Positions 12 through 29,999 are shown, numbered from the stretch's first letter. The stretch: DNA of 35,481 bases from a virus (IMGVR_UViG_3300033068_001655), one strand, 5' to 3'. Program-made: numbers and translations. Notes: generated by a model from the letters alone, not told the origin.

Positions 12-93
12 AGCCAGTGACAGGATTCGAACCTGCGGTGTTGGAGTTCTCCCTTACAAGGGGAGTGCAATCGACCATCTATGCAACACTGGC
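12..93 (-). tRNA. tRNA-Thr(UGU) with 12-nt variable region
   Basis: GCCAGTG/CACTGGC acceptor, CTCCC-CTTGTAA-GGGAG anticodon arm, GCAGG-TTCGAAT-CCTGT T arm; G1-C72, C2-G71, U73; CCA not encoded. Confidence 0.88.
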
Positions 94-97
94 GTAT

Positions 98-129
98 AAA
101 AAAAGACCCAAACTTATGTTCGGGTCTTT
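98..129 (-). terminator. Intrinsic terminator/attenuator upstream of tRNA-Thr
   Basis: AAAGACCCGAAC-ATAA-GTTTGGGTCTTT followed by a U run; ends 4 nt before the tRNA. Confidence 0.85.
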
Positions 130-156
130 AGAAATTTTTTATAATATAACTTTGCT

Positions 157-246
157 TTATACCATACATATCTCATTACCCGAAGTCGTGCTATTCACAC
201 AATTCGTAATCGTAATCACATTAATATTTATAGTATTTGTTTTCAT
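157..246 (-). CDS. Putative attenuator leader peptide 1 (29 aa, MKTNTININVITITNCVNSTTSGNEICMV)
   Basis: Hand-translated. ATG follows promoter motifs; 6 Thr and 6 Asn codons; contains TTCGGGT (178-184), complementary to the terminator 5' arm. Confidence 0.75.
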   Translation of the reverse strand: MKTNTININVITITNCVNSTTSGNEICMV

Positions 247-300
247 TGTATTATATATTATATTTTTATTGTCCCTTTTTGTTTTTCTTTAATTATAGTA

Positions 301-308
301 CAAATATA
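301..308 (-). promoter_or_regulatory. Bacteroidota sigma70-type -7 element (TATATTTG) upstream of leader 1
   Basis: Matches TAnnTTTG. The motif recurs upstream of genes at 2055, 2343, 13371, 13780, 15065, 16914, 22301, 22376(+), 26867, 29969 and 31205. Confidence 0.7.
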
Positions 309-328
309 CTATAAGTTTTTTAATCTAC

Positions 329-553
329 CTAATCTTTTATTATATTTTTTAATTTTTCTTCTCTCAATTCTCTAATAGTAACATCTTTTGCTATTTCAGT
401 ATTAAAGATAACATATGTTGAATCGCAATTATCACAAGCCCATTTTTCATCACTAAAAGGTGGATCAACTTCACAATACTCAATTTCATCCTTTTTACAA
501 TGTAAACAAGGTTTCACTTCATATATCTTATCTTCAACTTTAATTAGTTTCAT
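329..553 (-). CDS. Small Cys-containing hypothetical protein with C-terminal R-E-x-K-L motif
   Basis: CLHC...CDNC putative Zn ligands; ends [12 protein letters not shown]. Confidence 0.7.
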
Positions 554-567
554 ATTTTAAATTTTTG

Positions 568-650
568 TACGGGTAGTCGGACTCGAACCGACACGTCCTT
601 TCGGACACTGGCTTCTAAAACCAGCGGGTCTACCATTCCCCCATACCCGC
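568..650 (-). tRNA. tRNA-Leu(UAG)
   Basis: CTGGT-TTTAGAA-GCCAG arm, long variable arm, canonical T arm, A73. Confidence 0.95.
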
Positions 651-657
651 GTATTTG

Positions 658-740
658 TATCGAAAGTGGGACTCGAACCCACACGTTCATTTGAACACTA
701 TGTTTTGAGCATAGCACGTCTACCATTTCATCATTTCGAC
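658..740 (-). tRNA. tRNA-Leu(CAA)
   Basis: CTATG-CTCAAAA-CATAG arm, class II cloverleaf. Confidence 0.95.
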
Positions 741-746
741 ATTTTG

Positions 747-829
747 TACCGAGAGCGGGACTCGAACCCGCACGTCCTTTCGGACACTGGCTTCTTAGAC
801 CAGCGTGTCTACCATTCCACCACCTCGGC
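747..829 (-). tRNA. tRNA-Leu(AAG), A34 anticodon
   Basis: CTGGT-CTAAGAA-GCCAG arm; body nearly identical to the Leu(UAG) copy. Confidence 0.92.
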
Positions 830-837
830 TTATTTTG

Positions 838-922
838 TATCGGAGGAGGGACTCGAACCCTCACGCCCCTTCCGGGACACAGCATTTTAAGTGCTGCGTG
901 TCTACCATTCCACCACTCCGAC
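838..922 (-). tRNA. tRNA-Leu(UAA)
   Basis: CAGCA-CTTAAAA-TGCTG arm, class II cloverleaf. Confidence 0.95.
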
Positions 923-932
923 AAGTGATTTG

Positions 933-1013
933 TACCCCGTGTAGGATTCGAACCTACATTTTCAGCTTCCAATTACCCTTAACTGTTTAGAAGACAGTCG
1001 GGACTAACGGGGC
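933..1013 (-). tRNA. Rearranged tRNA-like RNA, anticodon UCU (Arg), 81 nt
   Basis: 7-bp acceptor and T arm intact; ACTGT-CTTCTAA-ACAGT arm starts 8 nt after the acceptor; D-loop-like AATTGGA lies 3' of the anticodon arm. Confidence 0.7.
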
Positions 1014-1018
1014 ATATT

Positions 1019-1474
1019 TTATTTACGACAATATGTTTCAGTTTGACTATGGCAATTCGGACACAAAATTCTAAGATTTAATAACCTATTATCCATATTA
1101 TTACCATTTATATGATCTAAGTGCATTACAATTGGTTTACTATTCCAATCAGTTAGTTCACATATTTCACATTTGTTCTCTTTTAATTTTGCAGAGAATA
1201 ATTTTTCTTTTAATCTACCATTATTTGTGTAGGTAGAATTTTCTATTAAAATTTCCTCAAGAGAACAAGTCTTACCAAAATTTCTATATCTGGTTCCACT
1301 ATTCCATCCTTGTCCTGTAAAGTGTGAGGTGTCAATTTCTAATAATTTAAAATACTTTTTTAGTGTTTTATAATTACCACCAACTGGTCTCATTTCTAAT
1401 TTTCTACAGACTTCTGCAACGGATAGTGATTCTTTTACTATCGGTTCTAATGTTTCTTTATTATACTTACTCAT
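1019..1474 (-). CDS. HNH homing endonuclease inside the Leu/Arg tRNA operon
   Basis: CEIC...HLDHINGNNMDNRLLNLRILCPNCH motif. Confidence 0.88.
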   Translation of the reverse strand: MSKYNKETLEPIVKESLSVAEVCRKLEMRPVGGNYKTLKKYFKLLEIDTSHFTGQGWNSGTRYRNFGKTCSLEEILIENSTYTNNGRLKEKLFSAKLKENKCEICELTDWNSKPIVMHLDHINGNNMDNRLLNLRILCPNCHSQTETYCRK

Positions 1475-1550
1475 AATTTATATTTATTTTAGTATATATA
1501 TTAAAACTTAAAACTCGATTTTTTCAAAAACCACCAAGTATCACTTTTTG

Positions 1551-1634
1551 TACCGAGAACGGGAATCGAACCCGTACGCCATAAAGGCACGAGATTTTAA
1601 GTCTCGCATGTACTACCTATTTCATCACCTCGGC
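1551..1634 (-). tRNA. tRNA-Leu(UAA)
   Basis: CGAGA-CTTAAAA-TCTCG arm, class II. Confidence 0.95.
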
Positions 1635-1640
1635 TTTTTG

Positions 1641-1725
1641 TACGTCTGGAGGGACTCGAACCCTCACGGTCATTCTGACCACTAGGGCTTAAACCTAGCG
1701 TGACTTCCAATTCCACCACAAACGC
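1641..1725 (-). tRNA. tRNA-Leu(UAA)
   Basis: CTAGG-TTTAAGC-CCTAG arm, class II. Confidence 0.92.
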
Positions 1726-1745
1726 ATTTTGTGACATTTTTTTTG

Positions 1746-1817
1746 TGACCCCACAGGGATTCGAACCCCGATTGAAAGCTTAGAAGGCTTTAGTCCTATC
1801 CGTTGAACGATGAGGCC
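1746..1817 (-). tRNA. tRNA-Arg(UCU)
   Basis: AAAGC-CTTCTAA-GCTTT arm, canonical cloverleaf. Confidence 0.93.
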
Positions 1818-1834
1818 AATTATTTATTTTACAT

Positions 1835-1867
1835 AAAAAAACCCGAAACTTTTACATTTCGGGTTTT
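1835..1867 (-). terminator. Intrinsic terminator/attenuator of the Arg/Leu tRNA operon
   Basis: AAAACCCGAAA-TGTAAAAG-TTTCGGGTTTT plus U run; ends 17 nt before tRNA-Arg. Confidence 0.87.
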
Positions 1868-1895
1868 GTTATATTATTTAGATACTTTCAGTTAT

Positions 1896-1997
1896 TTACA
1901 TACTAAAATTACTTGCTCTAAATATAGCAAAACCCGGTTCACGTCTTAGACATAAGACATTCAGCGTTAAGTTAATATTTAGATTAGTTGTTTTCAT
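1896..1997 (-). CDS. Putative attenuator leader peptide 2 (33 aa, MKTTNLNINLTLNVLCLRREPGFAIFRASNFSM)
   Basis: Hand-translated. 5 Leu codons then AGA-CGT; codons 21-26 carry CGGGTTTTGCTATATT (1921-1936), a 15/16 complement of 1860-1875. Confidence 0.8.
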   Translation of the reverse strand: MKTTNLNINLTLNVLCLRREPGFAIFRASNFSM

Positions 1998-2002
1998 TAT
2001 TG

Positions 2003-2014
2003 TATATATTAAAA
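2003..2014 (-). promoter_or_regulatory. Recurrent phage motif TTTTAATATATA (putative phage-specific promoter)
   Basis: Exact or near copies upstream of genes at 252, 1495, 5575, 7062(+), 17008, 19954, 28558, 30203, 31252(+) and 32835(+). Confidence 0.6.
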
Positions 2015-2054
2015 GTTTATTCTCCCTTTTTGTTATTTTGTTATTTTTATAGTA

Positions 2055-2086
2055 CAAAAGTATAAAAAGTTTTATAATGTACCAAA
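2055..2086 (-). promoter_or_regulatory. Bacteroidota-type promoter (TTTG-N20-TACTTTTG) for leader 2
   Basis: -33 TTTG at 2083-2086 and -7 TAnnTTTG at 2055-2062. Confidence 0.75.
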
Positions 2087-2087
2087 T

Positions 2088-2315
2088 TTATTTTAATTTA
2101 TTTTCAAAAAATTCTGAAAGTTCTTTTATCAACTGTTCATTATCTTTTTGTGTTTTATCTTCATCTGCACTGTCAATAGGATCATCGAACCATAATCCTT
2201 TATTATCAAATCCTTTTGTTTTTACCCAAGTGATTAAATCATTTAATCCCCAGAATACTTCTTGTGGAGTGTCTGAACCCCAAGAGTGCATAAGTGTTAA
2301 GAAAAATTTTTCCAT
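2088..2315 (-). CDS. Hypothetical protein
   Basis: 75-aa ORF with TATATTTG upstream at 2343. Confidence 0.65.
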   Translation of the reverse strand: MEKFFLTLMHSWGSDTPQEVFWGLNDLITWVKTKGFDNKGLWFDDPIDSADEDKTQKDNEQLIKELSEFFENKLK

Positions 2316-2587
2316 TTTTTTATTTTTATTTTTTTTATTCTACAAATATAAGAAATTTTTTTATATCTAGATTAAAATTGAAAAAACACGTACCATCAAG
2401 CACATGTTTTTTCATCACACTAACTTCCGTTTTAATATTAAAAAGGTTGTTGTGAATAATCCATTTCGTAATAATCCTCCTGAAAAGGGTAACCTCCAAT
2501 CCACTAGTATAATGGTTGTGTTTTCCGAATTATTGGAAATAAATTTCTTTACTATTACTATATATAAACTTTTAAAATCGTTTTTTA

Positions 2588-5554
2588 TTAAATAAGTTTA
2601 AGTATTCCTATATTATAGTGTATTTCATATTTATCTAAACCAGTACCTTGTGCATTACTAGGTCTTATTAATTCATTTCTACTTGCATCTACTAAAGAAC
2701 CTTTACTTTTTAAAGTAACTGATTCAACTGAGTCACCTGATAGTAATCCTTTTACTCTAAATTCATTACCAATGAATGTGAATTCTTGACCATATATCTT
2801 TTCTTGATCTAATGCAATTATTGATAGATTTGGTTTCTTTTCAGTATAGTAGATATTTATATCACCAAAGTCAACACCATTGTTACACTTATATAGGTAT
2901 CTATCATATAATTTACTATATCTTATTTTATCTAATCTTTTACTTTTTTTATTTTTCTTTCTAATTTCTTTTAGAAAAGGTCTTATTGTAGTAATATCAA
3001 TTATATCTTCTGATGCTATTTTTTGTTTAAAATCATCTAAAAGTTGTTTTACATTGACATAATTAGATTTTATATTAACTTTATATGGGACAGTATTAAT
3101 AGATACTAATTTAGAAAAATTAAGATTATTTATAATATGTGAATATGAAGTATCAGTTGCAATTCTATTTAATCTTATTTCTGGATGAGTACCTTCATTT
3201 TTCTCTTCAATCAAATGGTATAATACATCTTCTGAACCAATTGGATTAAAACCTGGTCTTTTAGCAACACCACCATATTTTGCTAATTTCTTCCCATTCT
3301 TACCCCATACTTTATTTAGTGCTCCTGCTATTTTTTCTTTTTTACCATTAACATAAAGTGTAAATTTATACAATGTTGTTTTACCAAATTTTTTATACCC
3401 GGATAAAAGTTGTAAAAATTGTTTATAAGTATTAGTTGCATCAATATTACCATATATTTTACCTGAATAAGAAACTAAAACTGAATTAGATTTAATTTTA
3501 GTAGAAAGTACTTTTCTTTTTAAATCTAATTCCATTTTAATTGGATCAATAAGTGAATCTCTTTTCTCTTCCAATGATTGTATTTTATCATCTATTGCTA
3601 TTTGATCACTATTATCATATAAAACACCATCATATGTAAATGTTTGGTTTGTGTAGATGCCTTCTACAAGAAGTGTTTTTTTATCTTCTATTGCATTATT
3701 AAAATTATCATAGTAATTTTGTGCAAAGGTATAATAATGAGATAGTCTTTTTTCTGCTACTTTTATATCATATGTTGTATTATCATAAGAAACATTATTG
3801 GAGTAGTATTGACCTCTTTTTAATTCAACATCTCTATTATTTATTTCTCCATTATAATAATTAGATATTCTATCTAATTCATTAGTAGCAACTTCTTTTG
3901 CGGAAGTTTTATTATCCACATTGAAGGTAGTTCCATCAAAGATGATAGGTCTATTTATATATGTATTATTTTCTACTAATGTAGTTTGATTGTCCATAGC
4001 TATTTGAAGTCCGCTAATATGATTCTGCTTTGAAGAAATTGCATTAAGTAATCCATCTTTGCTATTATATGTTAATGTATTAGAAGTTGTACCCAAAATT
4101 GTTGTACTAGTAAATATTGGCATATCATTTTCTGTAAAAGCTCCTGAAATTGAATCAACATCATAGATTGATGTATATTCATCCCAATCAGAAATTAGTT
4201 TATCTAAAGCTAACTGTTTATTAGAAACTGCTATTTGTGCATCAGAAATTGTATTATACGTACGTCCTTCAAATGAAAAATATTCACTTGCAGTATCAAT
4301 GGCATATTGAAATCTTGTAGTATAATCTTTTATATAATTTCTGGCATCATCAATTGTATTAAATGTTGCACCATTTATTGAAAAGGTTTCCTTTGCAGTG
4401 TTGATAGCATATTCAAACTTTGAATAGTAATCATCTGAATAACTTTTGAAATTGTCTAAAGCCATTCTTGCTTCTTCAATTGTATTGTAATTTCTATCTA
4501 AATATTCAAATTGTTCTCTTGATTTAGTAATTACATATTGAAAATCATTTATAGGTTGACTTAATAATTCATATTGTCGATCTATATAGTTTTGTGCATC
4601 ACTAAAATTACTAAATGACATACCATTAAAAGAAAATGCTTGTGCATTTAATAAGGAATCATCTATTGTTTTTTTAAATTCTTTAATAAACTCTTTAGAA
4701 TTATTTAAGTATTCAATATCAAGTCTTACCTCATAAAAATTACCTAATTCAAATTTATAGTCAGTATATACTGATAACTTTTTATTTTTATCATAAGTTA
4801 TACTTGCAGCAATTGAAAATGGACTAAACTTATTTTGATACTTTGCTTTTAAATAATATTCTTGTGTTTGTTGATTAGGTTTAATTGGTGGTATTTTATC
4901 ACTGAAGTCAACACCATAAGGAGCCATTGCACCAAATGAAATGTTATTGTTTCCGTTTTGATTTTCATAATTAAATGATATTAAATCACTTCTTCTTGTT
5001 GTATATTGTTTAAGTACCTTATTTCTTCCATAAGTCTTTGCAGGAAATCTGTTTAATCTAAAATTAAAACCTACTGAGTATTTATCTTTGATTTTAATAT
5101 CATGTAGATATTTATCTTGATTAATACTCGGATTTTTACTTATACTTAAATTTGGTTTACCATCATAGTGAGTTAAGTCATCAATAAGTCCTTGATTGGT
5201 CTTATTAATACCCAATACTTCACCATATTCTATTTTAGAACAATTAATAATTAAATCACTATATGGAGTATAGTAATCTTTAGTGCTTATTTCAGGTGAG
5301 TAATGAAATGCAGTTTTATAACCTGAATTAGAATAGTTTGTATCATTTAATGTTTTAATATGATCATTTAATGTAGATGATATTACATCTAACTTATTTA
5401 ATACTTCAACTGGTAGGTTGACTTGTTTAGAATTTATAATTTTAGTTGAAACTCTATTTTTAAATGACTCTAGTTGTGTTTTGTTAAATTCTGATAAATT
5501 TAAAGCTCTTTCATGATCAATATTTATACCTTTGATAAAATCGTTTATATTCAC
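2588..5554 (-). CDS. Large repeat-containing protein with C-terminal MBG-like domain (possible virion/adhesion protein)
   Basis: GTG start; internal F-x-x-x-G-x-x-(F/Y)-x-T-x-x-(D/E)-A repeats; C-terminal KIYGQE...GLLSGDSVESVTL...NAQGTGLDKYEIHYNIGILKL resembles MBG(YG) adhesin domains. Confidence 0.6.
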   Translation of the reverse strand: MNINDFIKGINIDHERALNLSEFNKTQLESFKNRVSTKIINSKQVNLPVEVLNKLDVISSTLNDHIKTLNDTNYSNSGYKTAFHYSPEISTKDYYTPYSDLIINCSKIEYGEVLGINKTNQGLIDDLTHYDGKPNLSISKNPSINQDKYLHDIKIKDKYSVGFNFRLNRFPAKTYGRNKVLKQYTTRRSDLISFNYENQNGNNNISFGAMAPYGVDFSDKIPPIKPNQQTQEYYLKAKYQNKFSPFSIAASITYDKNKKLSVYTDYKFELGNFYEVRLDIEYLNNSKEFIKEFKKTIDDSLLNAQAFSFNGMSFSNFSDAQNYIDRQYELLSQPINDFQYVITKSREQFEYLDRNYNTIEEARMALDNFKSYSDDYYSKFEYAINTAKETFSINGATFNTIDDARNYIKDYTTRFQYAIDTASEYFSFEGRTYNTISDAQIAVSNKQLALDKLISDWDEYTSIYDVDSISGAFTENDMPIFTSTTILGTTSNTLTYNSKDGLLNAISSKQNHISGLQIAMDNQTTLVENNTYINRPIIFDGTTFNVDNKTSAKEVATNELDRISNYYNGEINNRDVELKRGQYYSNNVSYDNTTYDIKVAEKRLSHYYTFAQNYYDNFNNAIEDKKTLLVEGIYTNQTFTYDGVLYDNSDQIAIDDKIQSLEEKRDSLIDPIKMELDLKRKVLSTKIKSNSVLVSYSGKIYGNIDATNTYKQFLQLLSGYKKFGKTTLYKFTLYVNGKKEKIAGALNKVWGKNGKKLAKYGGVAKRPGFNPIGSEDVLYHLIEEKNEGTHPEIRLNRIATDTSYSHIINNLNFSKLVSINTVPYKVNIKSNYVNVKQLLDDFKQKIASEDIIDITTIRPFLKEIRKKNKKSKRLDKIRYSKLYDRYLYKCNNGVDFGDINIYYTEKKPNLSIIALDQEKIYGQEFTFIGNEFRVKGLLSGDSVESVTLKSKGSLVDASRNELIRPSNAQGTGLDKYEIHYNIGILKLI

Positions 5555-5587
5555 TTAATTATATTTTTTTAAGTTATATATTAAAAA

Positions 5588-8350: not shown

Positions 8351-8677
8351 TTATCGTTTTATCATTGAATAGTATAAATTATTCGGCATATCAATATTAA
8401 AAAATGTTATTAGTGTATATTCTGTATATCTTTTATTTGCTCTATGTTCAAAAACAAATATTTTTTTATCATATATTCTTATAAAAGGACTCTGACAACC
8501 ATTTTTAATAGTATTCTGAATTACTCTTTTAACTTTATTTCGTAAATTACTACGAACATTTTCTTTGGTTTTACCTTTTAAAATAGAATTATTACATAAT
8601 ATGTATAATTCGTCAGAACTAACATGTAATCTTTTATACCCTTGTTGTATAGCGTGTTCAGTTAAAGTAATTTTCAT
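8351..8677 (-). CDS. Hypothetical protein
   Basis: Coupled to the NAMPT stop; begins ITLTEHAIQ. Confidence 0.6.
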   Translation of the reverse strand: MKITLTEHAIQQGYKRLHVSSDELYILCNNSILKGKTKENVRSNLRNKVKRVIQNTIKNGCQSPFIRIYDKKIFVFEHRANKRYTEYTLITFFNIDMPNNLYYSMIKR

Positions 8678-10266
8678 TATGCCACTAATTCCTCATATTC
8701 TTCTTCTAGAACCGTAGCTCTTTGACGAATTTCTTCAAATGTCCAATCAACTAAAAGTTCTCCCATTCTGAAAACTTCAACTAATTCATCTTTTACAGTA
8801 TCAAAGTCTGGATCAGATGATGTAACAGTTCTGTATGAACCATCTTCATTTTTAACTAATTTAAGTTTACCTTTTTTAGATTTCTTAAATGAACGTGTAA
8901 TGTTTCCATCAGCATCCATTTCAGTTGGAGATTTTACCACATCAGTATCTTTACCATCTACAACAGCAAAACAAGCTTTAGTTGCAAAGTTATTTGTATC
9001 ACGGTTTATATCGGCTTGTAAAAGTTTACCACCCATACCCAATGCTAAGTTCTCTGGTGAAATCTTCTCAGCTTTTAACATCGCATAGATTTCTCTAATT
9101 GAGTCTAAGTTTACACCGTCACCTTGAATTACACGAACTTGTGGAGGAAGTACTTTATAACCTTTCTCATTTACAGTATAACCAAATTTATCAAAAAGAA
9201 TATCGAAAATCTCTTTCAAGGTTCTTAAAACGTGACCAGAGTCAGGTCTAATAACTAATTGGTTACCTGGTTCAGCAGGTCTTGATAAAATCAAATCTCT
9301 TAACTCTCCACCCCAATAATCTTTACAAGCTCTAAAAATGTTAAATGAGTCAGATACACAAGCAACTAATCCGGTTGGGAATGTTTTAAGTACTCGTTTC
9401 ATCAATTCTAACTCTCCTTCTTCACCTTTAAGTGTCATAATAGAGTGTTCAGTCGCAGGTATTGATAAACCATAAATGGTATCAGTATTATATATGTCTC
9501 TAACTAATTTAGAAGCGATTACAGTGTCAGAACCTTTGAAGTTGACTAAATGTGCAGACCCACCAATTTTAGCTGATTGTACAGAAGATACACCTCTAAA
9601 TCCAAAGTCATTTAAAACAAAGTCAACTAAGAAATTGATTGTTTTATTATCATATGATGTACAATCTAAAAATGAGTCAGTAACGATTTTTCTTACTTCT
9701 CTTGAAAGTGTAGCAACGGTAATAGGATACCAAACTTGTAGTAAAATACTTTCTAAGAAGTTTGTTAGCCATGCACAATTTTCATCTAAACTTTCGATTG
9801 TGAAAAGTACATTTTTTACATCAACAACAGTTCCTTCTGGAACGGCTTTAATACTAATAGGTAGTTTACCATCATATTTATCAACGATGTAGTCAAACTT
9901 AGAACGATCAAATACATCGTCTCTTCCGAAAACTCCGTATTTAGTACCTAAATAGTCATAAGCTTCATCTACTTCTTCTTTTGTAATAGCAATACCTTCT
10001 AAGTATTGTTTAAGAACAATTTGTAAACCGTAGAATAAAGTTTTTTCAAATTTACCACCACGTGATTCCATATAAGAAATCATTTTGGTCATTTCTGTAC
10101 CATAAAATCGGTGATGTGAGTATTTGTATGCGTCAGAACAAAGAATTAAATTGTCTGGCTTAGTAATAATTTTTGTAAGGTATTTCTCCATACCTTCTAT
10201 TGCAGACCAGTCTCGGTTAGCAATTGCTTTTTGAAGCTTTCTTGTAATTGTTCTTTGTAAGCTCAT
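8677..10266 (-). CDS. nadV: Nicotinamide phosphoribosyltransferase
   Basis: SDAYKYSH, LNDFGFRG, IPATEHS, VSDSFN, VIRPDSG, VIQGDG and GMGGKLLQ motifs. Confidence 0.96.
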   Translation of the reverse strand: MSLQRTITRKLQKAIANRDWSAIEGMEKYLTKIITKPDNLILCSDAYKYSHHRFYGTEMTKMISYMESRGGKFEKTLFYGLQIVLKQYLEGIAITKEEVDEAYDYLGTKYGVFGRDDVFDRSKFDYIVDKYDGKLPISIKAVPEGTVVDVKNVLFTIESLDENCAWLTNFLESILLQVWYPITVATLSREVRKIVTDSFLDCTSYDNKTINFLVDFVLNDFGFRGVSSVQSAKIGGSAHLVNFKGSDTVIASKLVRDIYNTDTIYGLSIPATEHSIMTLKGEEGELELMKRVLKTFPTGLVACVSDSFNIFRACKDYWGGELRDLILSRPAEPGNQLVIRPDSGHVLRTLKEIFDILFDKFGYTVNEKGYKVLPPQVRVIQGDGVNLDSIREIYAMLKAEKISPENLALGMGGKLLQADINRDTNNFATKACFAVVDGKDTDVVKSPTEMDADGNITRSFKKSKKGKLKLVKNEDGSYRTVTSSDPDFDTVKDELVEVFRMGELLVDWTFEEIRQRATVLEEEYEELVA

Positions 10267-10272: not shown

Positions 10273-11466
10273 TTATTTTACTTTTATTCCTAACTCAATG
10301 TTTTCTTGCACAAAGTTAGTGATTTTTTCTATGTTATCTTTACTTTTGAATAGAATATTTGCACCATGTTTATCTAAATAAACCGCCATTATTCCGTCAA
10401 ATTCTTTCATATGTGTAACAGTATTTATTCCACACTCTAACGAACCACATTGGAATGGACGTTGTTCAGTTACAGGGATTTGACTACCTTCTCTTAATGG
10501 ATTATGTGTATGAATAATACAATCATAATCAGGGTTTTGTTGAAGTATCAACCATTGACTTCTTGCTCCTACAGAAGCTTTTCTTTTACCTTTAACAGTG
10601 AATTTATCTTCTTCAACTTCAACAACAGACATTCCTTCTGTGAAAACTAAATTATGATTAGCTTTTCTTTGTGAAGATAAAAATGACTTATCATCTATTT
10701 TATAACAAAAGTGTCCAGGTGTAAAACCATTACCATTGTTTTCAAGAAAGCCATTATTATCAATTAAGAATTGAATTACTTTTTGAAAAGTATCTGGTGT
10801 TGTTTTAATACTTGTAGACTCTGTATCAACAAAGTTTGATCTATTGTAAGTCAAATCATTTCTCAATAAAGTTATATCAACAAGTTCCTGTAAAGCTTTT
10901 TCACGATCAGTAGTTTCACCATAGATAGTTTCTTCTGGAGTGATAACCATATTATTTCTTGTTACAGTATCATTAGCTAAAACTAAATTACATTTTGTAT
11001 TTTTCATCATTTGAAGAGCAATTAAGAATTGTTCATCACTTGACTTGTTAGTAGTTGTTTTGAAACCAATAAGAAAGATGTCAGGACGTTTTTGACGAAT
11101 CTTAGCAATTACTTTATTAGTTGGTGTGAGTTCTAACGAGAAGTTACCATTAGCAGTTTTTAATCTTTCGGAATGAAACCCATTTTCGATACCGTCAATA
11201 GGTAGAGATTTGAAATCACAGAAAGCAACATTAAGAATGATTGTTCCTACGTTTTGATCTTCAAGTAATTGGTCAATATAGTTTTCTACATCTGAATTAC
11301 TTTTCAGATTAGAATCTCGGTCGGCCATTTTTGTTAAAACTAATTCAGAATTAGGGATTAGTTTGTGTAGTTTGATTGCAGTGTTACCAAAAGCTGGTGC
11401 ACTTAATGCGAAATGGTTTCTAACAGGTTCAAATGTTCCACCACCTAAAATTACTACTCGTTTCAT
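10273..11466 (-). CDS. CoaB-like (DFP) domain fused to class II aldolase-like domain
   Basis: N-term VVILGGGTFEPVR...FLIGFKTT...CNLVLAND; C-term GHFCYK...CIIHTHNP...FQCGSLE...LDKHG. Confidence 0.7.
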   Translation of the reverse strand: MKRVVILGGGTFEPVRNHFALSAPAFGNTAIKLHKLIPNSELVLTKMADRDSNLKSNSDVENYIDQLLEDQNVGTIILNVAFCDFKSLPIDGIENGFHSERLKTANGNFSLELTPTNKVIAKIRQKRPDIFLIGFKTTTNKSSDEQFLIALQMMKNTKCNLVLANDTVTRNNMVITPEETIYGETTDREKALQELVDITLLRNDLTYNRSNFVDTESTSIKTTPDTFQKVIQFLIDNNGFLENNGNGFTPGHFCYKIDDKSFLSSQRKANHNLVFTEGMSVVEVEEDKFTVKGKRKASVGARSQWLILQQNPDYDCIIHTHNPLREGSQIPVTEQRPFQCGSLECGINTVTHMKEFDGIMAVYLDKHGANILFKSKDNIEKITNFVQENIELGIKVK

Positions 11467-11836: not shown

Positions 11837-12288
11837 AAGTATTTTGTTATATCTTCTAAATTTTTAGGACATTCAGTATCGTGATACCACCATACTGCTT
11901 TTGTTTGTAGTCCTTTATAACACTCCATATGGAGCATTGTCATTGGTTTTCCTTTATCTTTTTTTAATACCGTTTTTACTCTACCTATTTCTTGTCCGGC
12001 TTTTACAGTTCTACCTGGTTTTATCTTAGTTAAGACTTCACCGTATAAAAATGTTTTTTGTATTTCTGGATGATAAATCATTACTGCTTGAGTATCGTTC
12101 CACCAAGGAGATTCACTAAATCCAGTGAACTCTATTACACTTGTAACTACACCGTCATACATTGAATAAACTTCTTCATTTTCTTGACAGAATAGATCAA
12201 CTCCAGTATGGTGGTCGTGTTTACGTTTAGCTCCAAAATAATTTTCAGAGTCTAAACTTGGTAAAGTATAATTACTAATTGGCCACAT
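11833..12288 (-). CDS. M23 family peptidase
   Basis: HTGVDL (HxxxD) and MLHME (HxE/HxH-like) motifs. Confidence 0.8.
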   Translation of the reverse strand: MWPISNYTLPSLDSENYFGAKRKHDHHTGVDLFCQENEEVYSMYDGVVTSVIEFTGFSESPWWNDTQAVMIYHPEIQKTFLYGEVLTKIKPGRTVKAGQEIGRVKTVLKKDKGKPMTMLHMECYKGLQTKAVWWYHDTECPKNLEDITKYL

Positions 12289-13289
12289 TATTCTGCGGTA
12301 TAAGTTACGTTAGTTCTTTCTTCTAATCTTTCACCAATTGGCATAAGATTGTTTGAATAAACTTTATCGATAAATGTTTTCATTAAATCTCTGTGTTCAG
12401 GAACTATTCCAGTTCTAATACCATCATAATTACTAAATTTTTGTGCAGGCACCCATTTAACCTCAGCAATATCATCAGATGCTTTTGCAAAGCCGTGGTG
12501 TCTTTCTGCTAAGAATAATGTAGTCATAATTCCAGAGTCTTCACCTTTATATCTCCAATCGTTTACTTTTTGAGAAGTAATATAAGTTAAGTTTCTGTTT
12601 ACTACTAAGTTACCACCAGTTTCTTCATTAAGTTCTCTTAATGCAGCGGCTTCAAAAGAAGAGTCAGAAGTATCAACGAAACCACCGACAAATCTAAATA
12701 ATTTCTCGTTAGGTTTTCTACCTAAAAGGATATTACCTTCACCATCGTGAGCAACAATGTCAACAGTAGGGAAAGTTGTAGGTCTATGGTTAAAAGAAGA
12801 ATAAATAACACCCGCTCTAAAATCATCAGAGTCTAAGGTTTCTTTGGCAACTTCTTCACGGATATTTGTACCGTTATAAGTAACACTTTCTTCTAATTCA
12901 ATAACTGAGTATTTACCAGAGTAGTAAGGAATAAAAGAGTCTCTACTTCCATAGATTACAGTTTTTTTCTCACCGAATGGAATAGGAATAATAGTGTCAA
13001 CATCTTGTGACCATTTTTCGTTATATCTTTGATCTTGAATAGGTAAGATCATAACAGAAGGGAATTCTTTTTGAATCATTGCTTTACGAGAAGCAAAATC
13101 TAGTGGATTTTTACGAGTGTTTTGAACTCTTGATACACCTAAAAGTATGATTACTTTTTTATGATTATCTAATACATAATTGATTAGTGAACGGTGACCA
13201 TCGTGTAGTTTGTTTACTTGGAAGCGACCAATAACAACTGCCACCTCTGCTTCTTTTTGAATTTCTAATTCATTTACTTTTATATTCAT
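12288..13289 (-). CDS. nadM: Bifunctional NMN adenylyltransferase / ADP-ribose pyrophosphatase (NadM-Nudix)
   Basis: IGRFQ...HDGH nucleotidyltransferase motif, NPLDF, and Nudix box GGFVD...AAALRELNEETG. Confidence 0.93.
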   Translation of the reverse strand: MNIKVNELEIQKEAEVAVVIGRFQVNKLHDGHRSLINYVLDNHKKVIILLGVSRVQNTRKNPLDFASRKAMIQKEFPSVMILPIQDQRYNEKWSQDVDTIIPIPFGEKKTVIYGSRDSFIPYYSGKYSVIELEESVTYNGTNIREEVAKETLDSDDFRAGVIYSSFNHRPTTFPTVDIVAHDGEGNILLGRKPNEKLFRFVGGFVDTSDSSFEAAALRELNEETGGNLVVNRNLTYITSQKVNDWRYKGEDSGIMTTLFLAERHHGFAKASDDIAEVKWVPAQKFSNYDGIRTGIVPEHRDLMKTFIDKVYSNNLMPIGERLEERTNVTYTAE

Positions 13290-24862: not shown

Positions 24863-25173
24863 TTTATTATTTTGCTAATTTTTTCTTGTCTTTGATATGA
24901 TTTATCGGTTAGATAAATAAATTCTTGTACTTCTTGTGATTGTTCTTGATAGTTATAAACAGATATATCTACCCAATTTTTACTTAAAAATGAACGTTTT
25001 TGAAGTTTCCTATAAACTGGACAATACCTATAAATATAAGTCATTTTAAAATCCTTAATAGGAGAACTAGGTGATAAGTCGGGCATTGATCTTAAATCAT
25101 AATGTTTTTCTTCTCGAAATTCACTCCATTGTGGAACTTCTTTAGTGAAAAGTTTTTTAATAAACTCAATCAT
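24859..25173 (-). CDS. Hypothetical protein with C-terminal motif
   Basis: Start MIEFIKK at a TAATG overlap; ends QRQEKISKIIK. Confidence 0.65.
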   Translation of the reverse strand: MIEFIKKLFTKEVPQWSEFREEKHYDLRSMPDLSPSSPIKDFKMTYIYRYCPVYRKLQKRSFLSKNWVDISVYNYQEQSQEVQEFIYLTDKSYQRQEKISKIIK

Positions 25174-25784: not shown

Positions 25785-25855
25785 TTATCTTAATTTAATT
25801 TTTTATCAATGTTTTCAAAAACATGTAACATCATGATATATAATATAAACTTATA

Positions 25856-26329
25856 TTATTCTCCGAGTAATTGTTTTAATTTCTTTTCTCTTAACAAAGC
25901 AGGTGCTAATTTTGGTTCATGTTTAATAATGAAATTTGTAATCTCTGTCAATATGTCACAGTTTTCAAATTCTTCTCTACGACCTGTTTTATTGTTCCAT
26001 AGTAACCAACCTGTTTGATCAAAAAATTCAAATTCCCAATCGAATTTCTTGTATTCGTTTTGAGTATCTCTCCACCCTGAATACCATTCTAAAGTAACTT
26101 CTGTTACCAAACTTTCGTCATTATACCAAACTAGTTTTATATTGATGTCGGTATGTCGTTTAGTATCTTTATAAACTAAAGTAAAATTACTTTGATGTCC
26201 AAATTGTCTATTTTCATACCTTTCATATATGTCAAAATACTGCTTAACAAAATTTTTTATTTGTTCAACAGTATGACAATCTTCTCTTTGTTTAATTCTT
26301 CGAGGTGTGTTTCTATTAATCAATTTCAT
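25856..26329 (-). CDS. Hypothetical protein with C-terminal motif
   Basis: Ends LLREKKLKQLLGE. Confidence 0.7.
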   Translation of the reverse strand: MKLINRNTPRRIKQREDCHTVEQIKNFVKQYFDIYERYENRQFGHQSNFTLVYKDTKRHTDINIKLVWYNDESLVTEVTLEWYSGWRDTQNEYKKFDWEFEFFDQTGWLLWNNKTGRREEFENCDILTEITNFIIKHEPKLAPALLREKKLKQLLGE

Positions 26330-26612
26330 TTACTTCTTTTAATAATTGACGAATTTTCATAAATCTTTTAGGTGTCTTTACCCATAGACCATATAAATCA
26401 ACAAATAAAGCAGGACCTTTCTTACCATTGACTGGTTCTTTTCTAAGAATATCACAGTTTCCTCTACGAGTAGAGTTAAGTATATCTACTTCATAAGGTC
26501 TTTCAGTTGAGTTCATATAAAAGAAGCGACACTCATCTTTCTTGAGTCCGAGTGTTCTTAATACATCTGTTAAATCCATATAATCCATTATTTTTCTAAT
26601 TCTTTTAACCAA
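26316..26612 (-). CDS. Hypothetical protein (paralog of 26643-26852)
   Basis: VDILNSTRRGNCDILR...VNG aligns with IEIINSYKNGDCEIIR...ING. Confidence 0.65.
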   Translation of the reverse strand: MVKRIRKIMDYMDLTDVLRTLGLKKDECRFFYMNSTERPYEVDILNSTRRGNCDILRKEPVNGKKGPALFVDLYGLWVKTPKRFMKIRQLLKEVNEID

Positions 26613-26642
26613 ACACCAATTTGTACAAATCTTGTAGGTGTT

Positions 26643-26852
26643 TTAATCCAAATTGTATTTATTGTTGTGAAAAAAACCTGCATATTTAGTTCTACCATTT
26701 ATTTGAGATAATCTAATTATTTCACAATCACCATTCTTATAGGAATTGATGATTTCAATTTCAACAGGTTTTTCATCAGTAATATTCTTATAAAAATAAG
26801 AAGTATCTGACTTATCTACGTTTACTATTTTAAGGAAGTCTTTTATATGCAT
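26643..26852 (-). CDS. Hypothetical protein (paralog of 26316-26612)
   Basis: Start moved to MHIKDF, downstream of the promoter at 26867. Confidence 0.65.
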   Translation of the reverse strand: MHIKDFLKIVNVDKSDTSYFYKNITDEKPVEIEIINSYKNGDCEIIRLSQINGRTKYAGFFHNNKYNLD

Positions 26853-26898
26853 AACTTTAGTTTTTACAAAAGTAAGTAAAATTTTTAACACATACAAA

Positions 26899-27666
26899 TT
26901 ATATTAAATCTAAATCTATACCGTGAGTGTCCCACCACCATTCTTTAGGTTTATCCTTATGTTTATCTTTTAATCTTTCCCATTTCACTAAAATTCTTTC
27001 TTGTCTTTGGACTTCATCATAGTAAAATTGGTGTTCAATAACTATATTATCTTTATGACATAATCTTAGTAATTTTCTTAAAAGATAACCTTGTCTATTA
27101 TTACCTGGTACAAACCCACTTTCAATTATCTTTTCAACGGTTTCTATTAAAGTATCTTTCTTTGACTTACTAGTTTTATTTAAAACCATTTCTAATCGTT
27201 CTAAACCAAAACCAACGTCAATACAAGTACCTAATGGATTCACAATGTTTCCAATTTCAATACCGTCTTTGTAAAACTCAGTACAATAACCTCCTATATC
27301 ACCATCAGACCAAATACATTCTTCATCAAATCTAACTTCTATATCTGTATAAAAATCAGACCATTCAGGTTTATCTGGGTGTATAGTAACATAATCAGGT
27401 GTAATACCTATTATTTTTAAAAATTCTAACCAATAATTTATTGTTTGTGAAACAGTCCATTCTCTGAATGAGAAGAACCCTATCATATTGAAATAAAGTA
27501 AATGTGAACCATCCCCTATTTCGTCTATATCATTTAATCTTAAACAAGATTGTATATTTGATATAGTTCCTTTGTAGTTTAAGTCTTTAAATTTAGACTT
27601 GAATTGTTGCATTCCTGCTGGACAAAATAATGTAGTTTCGTCATAAGACCTAACATTATCATCCAT
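26899..27666 (-). CDS. alaS: Minimal alanyl-tRNA synthetase (aminoacylation domain only; true start uncertain)
   Basis: TTLFCPAGMQQFK, QSCLR...DEIGDGSHLLYFNMIGFFSF, IDVGFGLERL and GNNRQGYLLRKLLR; no editing (HxxxH) or C-Ala domain. Confidence 0.88.
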   Translation of the reverse strand: MDDNVRSYDETTLFCPAGMQQFKSKFKDLNYKGTISNIQSCLRLNDIDEIGDGSHLLYFNMIGFFSFREWTVSQTINYWLEFLKIIGITPDYVTIHPDKPEWSDFYTDIEVRFDEECIWSDGDIGGYCTEFYKDGIEIGNIVNPLGTCIDVGFGLERLEMVLNKTSKSKKDTLIETVEKIIESGFVPGNNRQGYLLRKLLRLCHKDNIVIEHQFYYDEVQRQERILVKWERLKDKHKDKPKEWWWDTHGIDLDLI

Positions 27667-27763
27667 TTTAAAATCTATTTTATTAACGTCACAGTAAGAT
27701 TTATATTCTTCTGTGACTAAAGTGCGTCCAGCGACTTTTCTCCTTTAGTATTCATATCTATTT

Positions 27764-28537
27764 TTATTTTTTAAAATTATCAATTCTTTCCAATAGTTCC
27801 TCTAATGTTATAGAGGATTTTTTGTTTTTAGATACATTTTCATTATGTATCATTAGTTTACAGTTTGCAGGATGTGATAAAATTTTTGGATCAATACCTA
27901 ACTCAAACCCTTCTTTTACTGATAACATATGATCCCTACTTACACCACCTAAATTATTATTTTTATTTGAAGGTGAATACCAACCATATTTCTCTATAAG
28001 TGAAAAATCAAACTTATCTGGATAATCTGCTAAATTAAACTTGAAGTTCGCTTCTGCTTTATAGATTTTGAAAGCATCCATATCTTTCCTATTGTAATCT
28101 TTTTTACAATTATTGGAACAAAATTTAACCTTTCTTTTATTTGTAAATTTATTATTACACCCCTTACAAATTAAATCATTTAAACCAATTTTACCTTCTT
28201 CCTTTATATTATTATCAATAAGATACTTGTAAATACCCTTTCTTATATTATCACTACGTAATGAGTAATCTTTTTCAGAATTTGTAAATTTTGCAACACA
28301 CGAATGATTACAGTATTTATTACTTCTTTTTGAGAAAGGTATTATTTCACCACATTTACATATTTTAGGTGATTTAAGATACTCTATTTCTTTCAAATTA
28401 CTTTTTTCTTTTATTGTATCTGAGTATTTATCATAGTTTCTTAAATACTTATTTACATAAATGTTTCTACAGGAAAGAGAACAGTAAATTTTTTTACGTT
28501 CCGTTTCATTTTCACACTCTATATTTTTACATTTCAT
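27764..28537 (-). CDS. Zn-finger repeat HNH endonuclease
   Basis: Repeated YCSxxC/FCSxxC; C-terminal SRDHMLSV...HPANCKLMIHNENVSK. Confidence 0.8.
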   Translation of the reverse strand: MKCKNIECENETERKKIYCSLSCRNIYVNKYLRNYDKYSDTIKEKSNLKEIEYLKSPKICKCGEIIPFSKRSNKYCNHSCVAKFTNSEKDYSLRSDNIRKGIYKYLIDNNIKEEGKIGLNDLICKGCNNKFTNKRKVKFCSNNCKKDYNRKDMDAFKIYKAEANFKFNLADYPDKFDFSLIEKYGWYSPSNKNNNLGGVSRDHMLSVKEGFELGIDPKILSHPANCKLMIHNENVSKNKKSSITLEELLERIDNFKK

Positions 28538-28598
28538 ATTTACATATTTATTTTATGTATATATTAAAGTGGAGAGTTTTCCTATCGAACTATATTCG

Positions 28599-28673
28599 TG
28601 GACACAGGGGGAGTCGAACCCACTCATGAAACCTTCCTTGCAAAGGAAGTAGTCTGCCGTTGACTTCTGGCCC
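28599..28673 (-). tRNA. tRNA-Ala(UGC), imperfect acceptor/T stems
   Basis: CTTCC-TTTGCAA-GGAAG arm; G3:U70, A73. Confidence 0.8.
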
Positions 28674-28683
28674 ATTTTTTTTG

Positions 28684-28757
28684 TGGAAAATACCGGGATC
28701 GAACCGGTGACCTCTTATCTGCCAGACAAGCGCTCTAACCATCTGAGCTAATTCCCC
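28684..28757 (-). tRNA. tRNA-Ala(GGC)
   Basis: CTTGT-CTGGCAG-ATAAG arm; G3:U70. Confidence 0.93.
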
Positions 28758-28837
28758 ATTATAATTAAAGTGGTGTATAAAAATTTACATCTAACGTCTT
28801 AGATATAGAGATTTCTATAACTTAAACCACTTATCTG

Positions 28838-28909
28838 AGCGAAAAACGGGGGTTGAACCCGCGACCCCCACCTTGGCAAGGTGGTGCTCTACCACTGAGC
28901 TATTTTCGC
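28838..28909 (-). tRNA. tRNA-Gly(GCC)
   Basis: CCACC-TTGCCAA-GGTGG arm; U73. Confidence 0.96.
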
Positions 28910-28956
28910 CTATTGGAGCCGGACCCTGGGACTAACAGGGAGTCCTCCGGCATGTG

Positions 28957-29029
28957 TGCAGGAGAAGGGAGTCGAACCCTCGTCTGAGCATTGGAAGTGC
29001 CCTATATTTAGCCGTTATACGACTCCTGC
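28957..29029 (-). tRNA. tRNA-Gly(UCC)
   Basis: GGGCA-CTTCCAA-TGCTC arm; A73. Confidence 0.92.
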
Positions 29030-29038
29030 AATTTATTG

Positions 29039-29126
29039 AGCGAGTGACAGGATTCGAACCTGCGACGTGAACCTCATCTGACTGATTTGGAAGACCAGTG
29101 CCATCGACCAACTAGGCGACACTCGC
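29039..29126 (-). tRNA. tRNA-Gly(UCC) with 18-nt variable region
   Basis: CTGGT-CTTCCAA-ATCAG arm; T arm identical to tRNA-Thr at 12-93. Confidence 0.87.
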
Positions 29127-29135
29127 ATATTTTTG

Positions 29136-29216
29136 TAGGCAAGATGGGATTCGAACCCACGTTTTCAAGTTACCGCTACAGGTATAGAATGTATAAGATT
29201 CCACTGCTACTTGCCT
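29136..29216 (-). tRNA. Rearranged tRNA-like RNA, anticodon UAU (Ile-AUA), 81 nt
   Basis: AGGCAAG/CTTGCCT acceptor, GGAAT-CTTATAC-ATTCT arm, D-loop-like AGCGGTA 3' of it, intact T arm. Confidence 0.68.
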
Positions 29217-29222
29217 ATGTTG

Positions 29223-29297
29223 TAGTCTATACGGGATTCGAACCCGTGTCTTACCCGTGAAAGGGGCACGTCCTAGACCTGACTAGACGAATAGACC
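29223..29297 (-). tRNA. tRNA-Glu(UUC)
   Basis: TGCCC-CTTTCAC-GGGTA arm. Confidence 0.93.
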
Positions 29298-29305
29298 ATT
29301 TTTTG

Positions 29306-29379
29306 TACTCTTGACGGGAATCGAACCCGCATTTACATCAGCTTGAGAAGCTGGAGTCCTACCGTTAGACGACAAGAGC
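29306..29379 (-). tRNA. tRNA-Glu(CUC)
   Basis: CAGC-TTCTCAA-GCTG arm. Confidence 0.9.
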
Positions 29380-29388
29380 ATTTTTTTG

Positions 29389-29456
29389 TGGGATGCGAGA
29401 GACTCGAACTCTCCTGCTAGGGTTTTACAGACCCGGCTATCACCATAATCCATCCC
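29389..29456 (-). tRNA. Compact atypical tRNA-Tyr(GUA), 68 nt
   Basis: GGGT-CTGTAAA-ACCC arm, miniature D arm TAT-GGTG-ATA, short variable loop. Confidence 0.65.
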
Positions 29457-29467
29457 GATTATATTTG

Positions 29468-29540
29468 TAGTGTATGTCGGATTCGAACCGACGTCCTCCG
29501 CTTTGAAAAAGCGTAATCCTTACCGCTAGACGAATACACC
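29468..29540 (-). tRNA. tRNA-Glu(UUC)
   Basis: CGCT-TTTTCAA-AGCG arm. Confidence 0.9.
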
Positions 29541-29548
29541 GTATTTTG

Positions 29549-29630
29549 TGGGCAGAGAGGGATTCGAACCCCCGAACTCGAAGAGAACAGATTTACAGTC
29601 TGCCAGCTTTAACCACTTGCATATCTACCC
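29549..29630 (-). tRNA. tRNA-Tyr(GUA)
   Basis: GCAGA-CTGTAAA-TCTGT arm, class II. Confidence 0.95.
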
Positions 29631-29640
29631 ATTATATTTG

Positions 29641-29712
29641 TACTAGTGACGGGACTCGAACCCGCATCTCCCGGTTTGAAAAACCAGTTTCCTGCCATTA
29701 GAAGACACTAGC
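29641..29712 (-). tRNA. tRNA-Glu(UUC)
   Basis: CTGGT-TTTTCAA-ACCGG arm. Confidence 0.88.
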
Positions 29713-29732
29713 ATATTTAATTTTAATTCAAT

Positions 29733-29771
29733 AAAAAAAACCCAATCTGATTTTTAAGTCAGATTGGGTTT
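29733..29771 (-). terminator. Intrinsic terminator/attenuator of the Glu/Tyr/Ile/Gly/Ala operon
   Basis: AAACCCAATCTGA-CTTAAAAA-TCAGATTGGGTTT plus U run; ends 20 nt before tRNA-Glu. Confidence 0.88.
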
Positions 29772-29797
29772 GTTATATAATAATGTGCTTTAACTCA

Positions 29798-29899
29798 TTA
29801 CTTTATAGACATAACGCTACTGACCGATGGTATTCTATACCCCGCTTCATATCCGCCTATGGCTTCTATAGCTATTGTTATGTTAGTAATTGTTGTCAT
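29798..29899 (-). CDS. Putative attenuator leader peptide 3 (33 aa, MTTITNITIAIEAIGGYEAGYRIPSVSSVMSIK)
   Basis: Hand-translated. Codons 9-21 encode only Ile(ATA), Ala, Glu, Gly and Tyr; lies between a promoter and the terminator. Confidence 0.8.
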   Translation of the reverse strand: MTTITNITIAIEAIGGYEAGYRIPSVSSVMSIK

Positions 29900-29968
29900 T
29901 TTTTCTATTTTTTAAATTGTTGTTTTTAATTCTTCTAGTCATTTTTAATGACTCTCGTTCTTCGAGTA

Positions 29969-29999
29969 CAAAGATACGATAAGTTTTTTAACTACCAAA
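29969..29999 (-). promoter_or_regulatory. Bacteroidota-type promoter (TTTG-N19-TATCTTTG) for leader 3
   Basis: -33 element at 29996-29999 and -7 element at 29969-29976. Confidence 0.78.

Follow-up and report, generated by a model that had tools for sequence, protein, structure and literature searches.

The closest described relatives of the elements considered here are the multivalent attenuators of enterobacteria (thr, with Thr/Ile; ilvGMEDA, with Ile/Leu/Val; also trpL, hisL, leuL and pheL), in which a promoter is followed by a short leader rich in control codons, by mutually exclusive antiterminator and terminator hairpins and by a U-tailed terminator placed just before the genes, several control amino acids may be combined in one leader, and a ribosome standing over segment 2 favours termination. 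Such control also extends to the decoding apparatus, the E. coli pheST attenuator with its pheM leader governing phenylalanyl-tRNA synthetase and sensing the supply of Phe-tRNA. Phage tRNA genes are usually viewed as constitutive cargo serving to correct codon bias or to replace tRNAs destroyed by defence systems, and to our knowledge essentially nothing is known about the control of their expression. Here, we analyzed a 35,481-nucleotide (nt) stretch of DNA from the virus IMGVR_UViG_3300033068_001655 (hereafter the window), in which each of three tRNA operons is preceded by a small open reading frame (ORF) and an intrinsic terminator. Judging from sequence comparison and folding, we estimate at about 0.8 the probability that these modules are ribosome-mediated (leader-peptide) transcription attenuators, which would sense decoding speed and subject phage tRNA operons to negative feedback by tRNA supply.

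All three modules lie on the minus strand and follow a single layout: a Bacteroidota-type promoter, an ORF of 29-33 codons, a strong U-tailed terminator and the first tRNA gene. The 18-nt promoter pattern AAACTTnTnnTAnnTTTG occurs in the window exactly three times (2072-2055, 318-301 and 29986-29969), being followed each time by a small ORF and a strong terminator. The promoter of module 1 (2055..2086), an exact match to this pattern that aligns with its counterparts in modules 2 and 3, has TTTG at -33 (2086-2083) and TACTTTTG at -7 (2062-2055); in module 2 (301..332) the -33 element is the variant TTAG and the -7 element is TATATTTG, and in module 3 (29969..29999) they are TTTG (29999-29996) and TATCTTTG (29976-29969), respectively. 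The form TTTG / TAnnTTTG is what we take to be the Bacteroidota sigma-A consensus. Leader ORF 1 (1896..1997, MKTTNLNINLTLNVLCLRREPGFAIFRASNFSM) has 33 codons with five for Leu and three for Arg, codons 6-19 being the control ones; leader ORF 2 (157..246, MKTNTININVITITNCVNSTTSGNEICMV) has 29 codons and is rich in Thr, Asn, Ile, Val and Cys; leader ORF 3 (29798..29899, MTTITNITIAIEAIGGYEAGYRIPSVSSVMSIK) has 33 codons, of which codons 9-21 specify Ile, Ala, Glu, Gly and Tyr only. Between each ORF and its tRNAs lies a terminator with a G+C-cored stem of 12-13 base pairs (bp), 7-8 U and a folding free energy (dG) from -13.9 to -18.1 kcal/mol: terminator 1 at 1831..1867 (12-bp stem 1867-1838 and U-tract, dG -13.9), terminator 2 at 95..129 (12-bp stem 129-102 and U-tract, dG -16.5) and terminator 3 at 29730..29771 (13-bp stem 29771-29738 and 8-U tract, dG -18.1). 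The first tRNAs begin at 1817, 93 and 29712, that is 20, 8 and 25 nt beyond the stem ends of modules 1, 2 and 3.

The arrays so preceded differ in content. Array 1 (567..1817) comprises two Arg(UCU) and six Leu tRNAs, starting with Arg(UCU) at 1745-1817 and Leu(UAA) at 1640-1725 and 1550-1634 and continuing past an HNH-like ORF (1019-1474) with a non-canonical Arg(UCU) at 933-1013, detected by Infernal only, and with Leu(UAA), Leu(AAG), Leu(CAA) and Leu(UAG) within 567-922. Array 2 opens with tRNA-Thr(UGU) at 11..93, its remainder lying past the window edge. The 12 tRNAs of array 3 (28599..29712) are arranged in the order Glu(UUC), Tyr(GUA), Glu(UUC), Tyr(GUA), Glu(CUC), Glu(UUC), Ile(UAU), Gly(UCC), Gly(UCC), Gly(GCC), Ala(GGC) and Ala(UGC), thus four for Glu, two for Tyr, one Ile(UAU), three for Gly and two for Ala. 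Leader composition follows these sets. Leu or Arg account for 8 of 32 residues in leader 1 against 3.7 expected (p = 0.03), all five Leu codons and both AGA codons being readable by array 1; {I, A, E, G, Y} constitute 17 of 32 residues in leader 3 (p = 0.003), with 13 set members forming the unbroken run of codons 9-21 (simulated P = 3.5e-6) and ATA representing six of seven Ile codons, for which array 3 has tRNA-Ile(UAU); and Thr occupies 6 of 28 positions in leader 2, where 1.8 are expected (p = 0.007). An earlier note made on this DNA without database searches had described three tRNA operons of this common layout, with leader codons mirroring the arrays (Leu/Arg; Ile-AUA/Ala/Glu/Gly/Tyr) and a Thr-rich leader before tRNA-Thr; the coordinates, the three promoter sites and the p values given above bear it out, and its distance of 4-20 nt from hairpin to first tRNA holds when counted past the U-tract.

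The tRNA regions of related contigs were searched for the same succession of promoter, ORF, terminator and tRNA. The earlier note had called the system genome-wide, and this extent was assessed through the relatives. Five such modules were found in the closest relative, IMG/VR 3300010365_001407, and the resulting catalogue holds 14 modules, three from the window and 11 from four related IMG/VR contigs, with a fifteenth in the published 735-kb genome LR756501.1. An orthologue of leader ORF 1 in the relative L007 also precedes an Arg/Leu array, and orthologues of leader ORF 2 in five contigs stand ahead of Asn/Ile/Val/Cys/Thr/Ser arrays. Other leaders are associated with quite different sets: MKTIISTHIVRVQSTTSSSSSSRSSKLSEVLVYS (beginning with MKTIISTHIVRVQSTTSSSSSSRSS) with Arg, Ser, Ser, Ser, Ser; MTTINRSSISSLKQRIIS, having four AGT codons for Ser, with Arg(ACG), Ser(GCU); MPQPMQDQDRITNQ with Asp, Gln, Gln, Pro, Asp, Asp, Pro, Asp, Met; MNTVFNIFDFNFEAAEADF with Phe, Glu, Phe, Glu, Glu, Asp, Ala; MQTIVNILTLNLVLCLSVL with Cys, Val, Leu, Met, Leu, Leu; MKNNRTNTRPVVATTAPVTGGNRPA with Pro, Pro, Arg, Ala, Ala, Thr, Gly, Gly, Val, Val, Thr, Thr, Arg, Arg; and MLFNSNISVKFTPAPAVAFRRGTGTGTGTCVPAGCG from the 735-kb phage with an array starting as Arg, Arg, Pro, Ala, Arg, three Thr, two Val and Ala (the last five leaders are given by their first residues). 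In every leader the amino acids served by the own array are over-represented (binomial p between 0.03 and 8e-7). When arrays were swapped among 11 mutually non-orthologous leaders, a match as good as the observed one was reached in 0 of 500,000 permutations (z = 6.9 at the amino-acid level, and z = 7.5 when codons were matched to the array anticodons), and for 10 of these 11 leaders the own array is the best partner at the codon level. Codons readable by the own array make up 46% in the ORF frame, and reading the same nucleotides in the two remaining frames gives 19% and 18%; since the match is frame-specific, base composition cannot explain it, and it is the reading frame that matters. Correspondence reaches the level of isoacceptors, AGT codons going with Ser-GCU, ATA with Ile-UAU and AGA with Arg-UCU.

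One might regard the small ORFs as independent small-peptide genes, i.e., as a paralogous MKT..NIN family equipped with its own promoter and terminator, the tRNAs being transcribed by leaky read-through or from other promoters and the codon match reflecting adaptation to the local tRNA supply. The N-termini are indeed similar (MKT/MNT/MTT...N.I), the modules are evidently paralogous and their terminators are strong. Beyond the first few residues, however, no peptide sequence is conserved, membership in the amino-acid set of the array being conserved instead; no separate host-type promoter is seen in the window within the 8-25 nt separating terminator from tRNA; and neither the co-variation of antiterminators nor the fixed spacing between stop codon and terminator, both described below, has any role in a plain gene. 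We therefore assign to this explanation hardly any chance. The mode of divergence among further orthologues of modules 3 and 2, located by exact-word scans, is informative in the same respect. Within codons 2-21 of the module 3 family (four orthologues) five columns vary synonymously only and no amino-acid replacement is found, whereas three replacements, and no column of synonymous change alone, are seen in codons 22-33. Of the four replacements in the control region of the module 2 family three remain within the array set (N/T/I/V/S), and beyond the antiterminator all four leave it. Such a pattern would be expected if selection acts on the amino-acid identity of the codons and not on peptide fold or RNA sequence.

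The attenuation model further implies that the leader contains a segment able to sequester the 5' arm of the terminator. Compared with shuffled sequences, complementarity to this arm is above chance in 9-10 of the 14 modules, in one more if the loop is included, and marginally in another one (p = 0.056). Antiterminator segment 1 (CCGGGTTTT, 1929..1937, codons 21-23) is complementary to the arm AAAACCCG and forms a duplex of -10.0 kcal/mol (shuffle fraction 0.010), and segment 2 (CTTCGGGTA, 177..185, codons 21-24) is complementary to ACCCGAA with a duplex of -11.2 kcal/mol (shuffle fraction 0.003). The paired sequences vary from module to module with complementarity being kept: CGGGTTTT/AAAACCCG, TTCGGGT/ACCCGAA, TCAGGGTT/AACCCTGA, TCGAGCT/AGCTCGA, GTGGTCG/CGACCAC and GGGTGTGGGT/ACCCACACCC. 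Leaders accordingly fit their own terminator better than those of others, with a summed energy of -108 against -79 +/- 6 kcal/mol and 0 of 200,000 permutations reaching the observed value. The control codons are distributed with respect to this segment, since array-matching codons constitute 102 of 147 (69%) upstream of it and 15 of 67 (22%) downstream (Fisher p = 1.6e-10), and the distance from stop codon to terminator arm is a constant 21-33 nt. Folding with the complete terminator at equilibrium is non-discriminating, and therefore a snapshot of nascent RNA was used, extending up to the terminator 5' arm, in which 28 nt were masked as the footprint of a ribosome. The arm is paired upstream with the antiterminator when the A site lies within the control region (P about 0.5-0.9) and is released when the ribosome stands anywhere from about codon 18 to the stop codon; in module 1 the profile switches at antiterminator segment 1. 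In silico, then, the control codons are placed as an attenuator requires, so that a stalled ribosome would favour the antiterminator and a ribosome that has passed would favour the terminator. The earlier note had credited two leaders with a clear antiterminator, and it is modules 1 and 2 that stand above shuffles and module 3 that does not; its interpretation of the layout as ribosome-mediated attenuation gains support from leader/array co-variation, which it had suggested looking for in homologous loci and which held over the 11 independent modules, from frame specificity and codon position, from joint variation of antiterminators and terminators and from footprint masking.

The signal perceived, or the sign of the response, might differ from that assumed here. 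Attenuation could depend on ribosomes and yet report amino-acid starvation or general translation stress, or, in modules devoid of an antiterminator, a closely following ribosome could suppress the terminator so that fast decoding results in read-through. Stalling is blind to the difference between an uncharged and a missing tRNA, module 3 has no clear antiterminator, and a terminating ribosome is reported to be able to suppress terminators situated close behind the stop codon (PMC4824070). On the other hand, the nine modules with a clear antiterminator have the geometry of the classical sign, the 21-33 nt between stop codon and terminator exceed 'several base pairs', and the isoacceptor match (the AGT, ATA and AGA codons mentioned above) fits the sensing of tRNAs better than that of amino acids. 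An outside chance may be left to this variant.

Another explanation accepts the switch as real and ascribes its setting to a factor other than the ribosome, such as a phage antitermination protein or an RNA timing tRNA expression, the ORF being incidental. It draws on the same lack of a clear antiterminator in module 3 and on a second conserved motif, AAAGRGAnAATAAA-N4-5-TTAATATATA, which precedes several leader ATG codons and a leaderless tRNA(CAU) pair and hints at phage-specific control of transcription. This motif is found on the minus strand of the window at 2029-2003, 278-252 and 30229-30203, and also in L007; it ends exactly 5 nt ahead of the ATG in leaders 1 and 2 and in three leaders of the closest relative, and 17 nt ahead of the tRNA(CAU) pair. 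It may represent a phage-specific promoter arranged in tandem with the host-type one and giving nearly leaderless leader mRNAs. What an external factor leaves unexplained is why the codons of a leader follow the content of its array in a single frame, why array-matching codons gather upstream of the antiterminator, why substitutions in the control regions are mostly synonymous or confined to the array set, and why leader sequences differ between arrays of one genome. We consider it very unlikely that control of this kind accounts for the modules.

Several observations weigh against ribosome-mediated attenuation as proposed here. The leaders lack a Shine-Dalgarno sequence and thereby a positive signal of initiation; the absence of this element is usual in Bacteroidota. 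For module 3 with its orthologues and for module G2_4 no antiterminator above chance was found in comparison with shuffles: neither the 5' arm of terminator 3 alone nor the arm together with the loop has a leader partner exceeding them, and the sole candidate, a weak 6-bp pairing of GGTCAG (29825-29820) with CTGACT of stem top and loop, does not exceed them either. Folded at equilibrium with the full terminator, 9 of the 14 modules let the terminator win at nearly every ribosome position, which calls for a kinetic switch like that of classical attenuators. The stop codon of module 1 lies 30 nt beyond the antiterminator segment, so that a ribosome at the stop leaves the segment uncovered; timing or 1:2 pairing must do the work. 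Not all tRNA genes are arranged in this way: no leader was detected for the arrays of contig 3300000439_000004 (L004, L009) and for some internal array segments, where protein ORFs stand directly ahead, nor for the two tRNA(CAU) genes of the window (30026..30186, minus strand), located between coaE and the promoter of module 3. This pair, whose arrangement in L002 is identical, has neither leader nor terminator and is therefore outside the attenuator control. Contigs from public RNA runs that map onto the window consist mostly of tRNA-like sequence of other organisms with no readable starts or ends and are uninformative; two RNA-library contigs touch the leader 3 region, for which carry-over of DNA is possible. 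Finally, amino-acid starvation would induce read-through as well, although extra tRNA would then be of no help.

Taken as ribosome-mediated attenuators, the modules might operate as follows. Host RNA polymerase would initiate at the Bacteroidota-type promoter, and a ribosome would translate the leader of 29-33 codons, the first ~20 of which are rich in codons read by the downstream tRNAs. If a cognate aminoacyl-tRNA is scarce, the slow ribosome would leave free a segment that lies near codons 21-24 in modules 1 and 2 and as late as codon ~31 in relatives; this segment could then pair with the 5' arm of the terminator, so that no terminator is formed and polymerase enters the tRNA genes. With fast decoding, the ribosome would cover the segment while the terminator is being transcribed, and synthesis would stop 8-25 nt ahead of the first tRNA. 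Each leader would thus be a multi-input OR sensor that responds to between two and about eight amino acids and in part distinguishes isoacceptors, and each array would be under self-limiting negative feedback because its products are the very tRNAs relieving the stall. That the leaders are translated we infer from the frame specificity and from the mostly synonymous or within-set changes of orthologous control regions; the sign of the response in vivo is a prediction, and starvation, mismatch in codon usage and host anticodon nucleases are all possible as its natural trigger. A more far-reaching proposal, which we advance tentatively and judge somewhat short of even odds, sees in these product-sensing feedback loops both a phage counter-defence and a sensor of supply: where host tRNAs for a set of codons are absent, cut by anticodon nucleases or outcompeted by the A+T-rich codon usage of the phage, the stalled leader ribosome would open the respective array only, and newly made tRNAs would close it. 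Leaders would in this case be evolvable multi-input OR gates with isoacceptor resolution, rewritten upon gain or loss of tRNAs and perhaps driven by two promoters, host-type and phage-type.

Some features of the arrays and their surroundings deserve mention in their own right. The tRNA genes of the window, all on the minus strand, are confined to two regions, 11-1817 and 28599-30186 (18 by ARAGORN, with extras by Rfam or relaxed ARAGORN), and many of the phage tRNAs are non-canonical: 933-1013, 29135-29216, 29038-29126 and 11-93 on the minus strand of the window and many others in L001-L010. One tRNA-Arg(UCU) has a D region of 3 nt and a variable insertion of 21 nt; long variable arms are present in tRNA-Ile(UAU), Gly(UCC, 89 nt) and Thr(UGU, 83 nt), and relatives have Asn, Cys, Pro and Val tRNAs of 86-93 nt. 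Arrays of two related contigs contain tRNAs with the anticodon CUA, of the amber suppressor type (L001 8317-8398; L009), one of them behind a leader, which suggests reassignment of a stop codon in some relatives; the ORFs of the window itself are open under table 11. The minus-strand ORF inside array 1 (1019-1474, 151 amino acids) shows HNH-type motifs (HLDHINGNN... CPNCH) in its translation and has no Pfam match. A Cys-rich minus-strand ORF of 257 amino acids adjoining array 3 (27764-28537), also with no Pfam match, is homologous to ORFs situated next to tRNA arrays in every relative as well as in Lak phages and enterobacterial jumbo phages; identity is 44-60% for six IMG/VR contigs and 48% for the 735-kb huge phage LR756501.1. 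Both array-associated ORFs probably encode homing endonucleases. Array 3 ends in two tRNA-Ala genes, and a minus-strand ORF of 255 amino acids located downstream of it (26899-27666) shows homology to the catalytic, N-terminal portion of alanyl-tRNA synthetase (Pfam tRNA-synt_2c, E = 1e-20; PDB 3htz/1riq, E = 3e-12). A terminator between this array and the miniature synthetase gene was looked for and not found, and the latter may therefore share the control exerted by leader 3.

The window, having 22-41% G+C, encodes NAMPT, an NMNAT/Nudix protein, CoaE, a helicase and a methyltransferase. Genes of cofactor metabolism lie on the minus strand: NAMPT at 8677-10266, a DFP-like/aldolase-like ORF at 10273-11466, the NMNAT-Nudix fusion at 12288-13289 and dephospho-CoA kinase at 30230-30802. 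No close relative of the window at the DNA level was found among deposited phages, a search of INPHARED with positions 1-2400 giving similarity at the level of tRNAs only, and a search for relatives by the CoaE protein found none. CheckV suggests that the genomes behind the related IMG/VR contigs are several hundred kb in size. Because of the TTTG/TAnnTTTG promoters, the homologue in a huge phage and these genome sizes, the window is read as a piece of a very large phage that would infect a Bacteroidota host.

If the modules work as proposed, a phage would measure decoding speed codon by codon and make its tRNAs on demand, and textbook attenuation would be extended to a new class of targets, where the RNA under control would also be the effector. 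Questions on tRNAs limiting during infection, on the induction of replacement tRNAs by anticodon-nuclease defences and on the co-evolution of leaders with arrays would become testable, and the modules would offer compact, programmable sensors for the supply of chosen tRNA sets in Bacteroidota. The 735-kb phage carrying one module comes from the huge-phage study of Al-Shayeb et al. 2020 (PMC7162821), from the text of which both 'attenuat' and 'leader' are absent; Bacteroides phage crAss001, considered as a possible cultured model, has no module of leader and terminator in its tRNA region (MH675552.1, 1680-5810); and full-text literature searches returned no description of leader-peptide control of tRNA genes, in agreement with the earlier note, which knew of none for phage arrays. 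In the Rfam scan of the window and five related loci only tRNA reached the gathering score, with no T-box and no known leader family among the hits.

The tRNA arrays of large phages (T4, T5 and huge phages) resemble those described here in the clustering of tRNA genes interrupted by homing-endonuclease-like ORFs and differ in that no leader-peptide regulation has been described for them. T-box riboswitches (RF00230) likewise sense the state of a specific tRNA and switch between terminator and antiterminator ahead of aminoacylation genes; they, however, bind uncharged tRNA directly via a specifier codon and the T-box sequence, need no translation and serve one tRNA per leader, whereas the phage leaders carry an ORF. 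The pheST attenuator is alike in that its leader peptide governs part of the decoding machinery and not the synthesis of an amino acid, and differs in controlling a synthetase and not tRNA genes, in responding to a single amino acid and in being cellular. The usual scope of classical attenuators, i.e., biosynthesis and transport of amino acids and aminoacyl-tRNA synthetases, does not cover the phage modules, as the first genes regulated are tRNAs. In contrast to the enterobacterial systems, the targets are tRNA genes instead of biosynthetic enzymes; the product itself, and not a metabolite made by it, would relieve the stall; up to about eight amino acids would be sensed by one leader, with synonymous codons spread over isoacceptors; and the setting is that of a phage using Bacteroidota-type promoters, with no sequence similarity to known leaders (no match to an Rfam leader family). 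Thus, the modules appear to share the structural organization of the thr and ilv attenuators, and what would be new in them is the choice of tRNAs as targets, the larger number of amino acids sensed and the phage setting.

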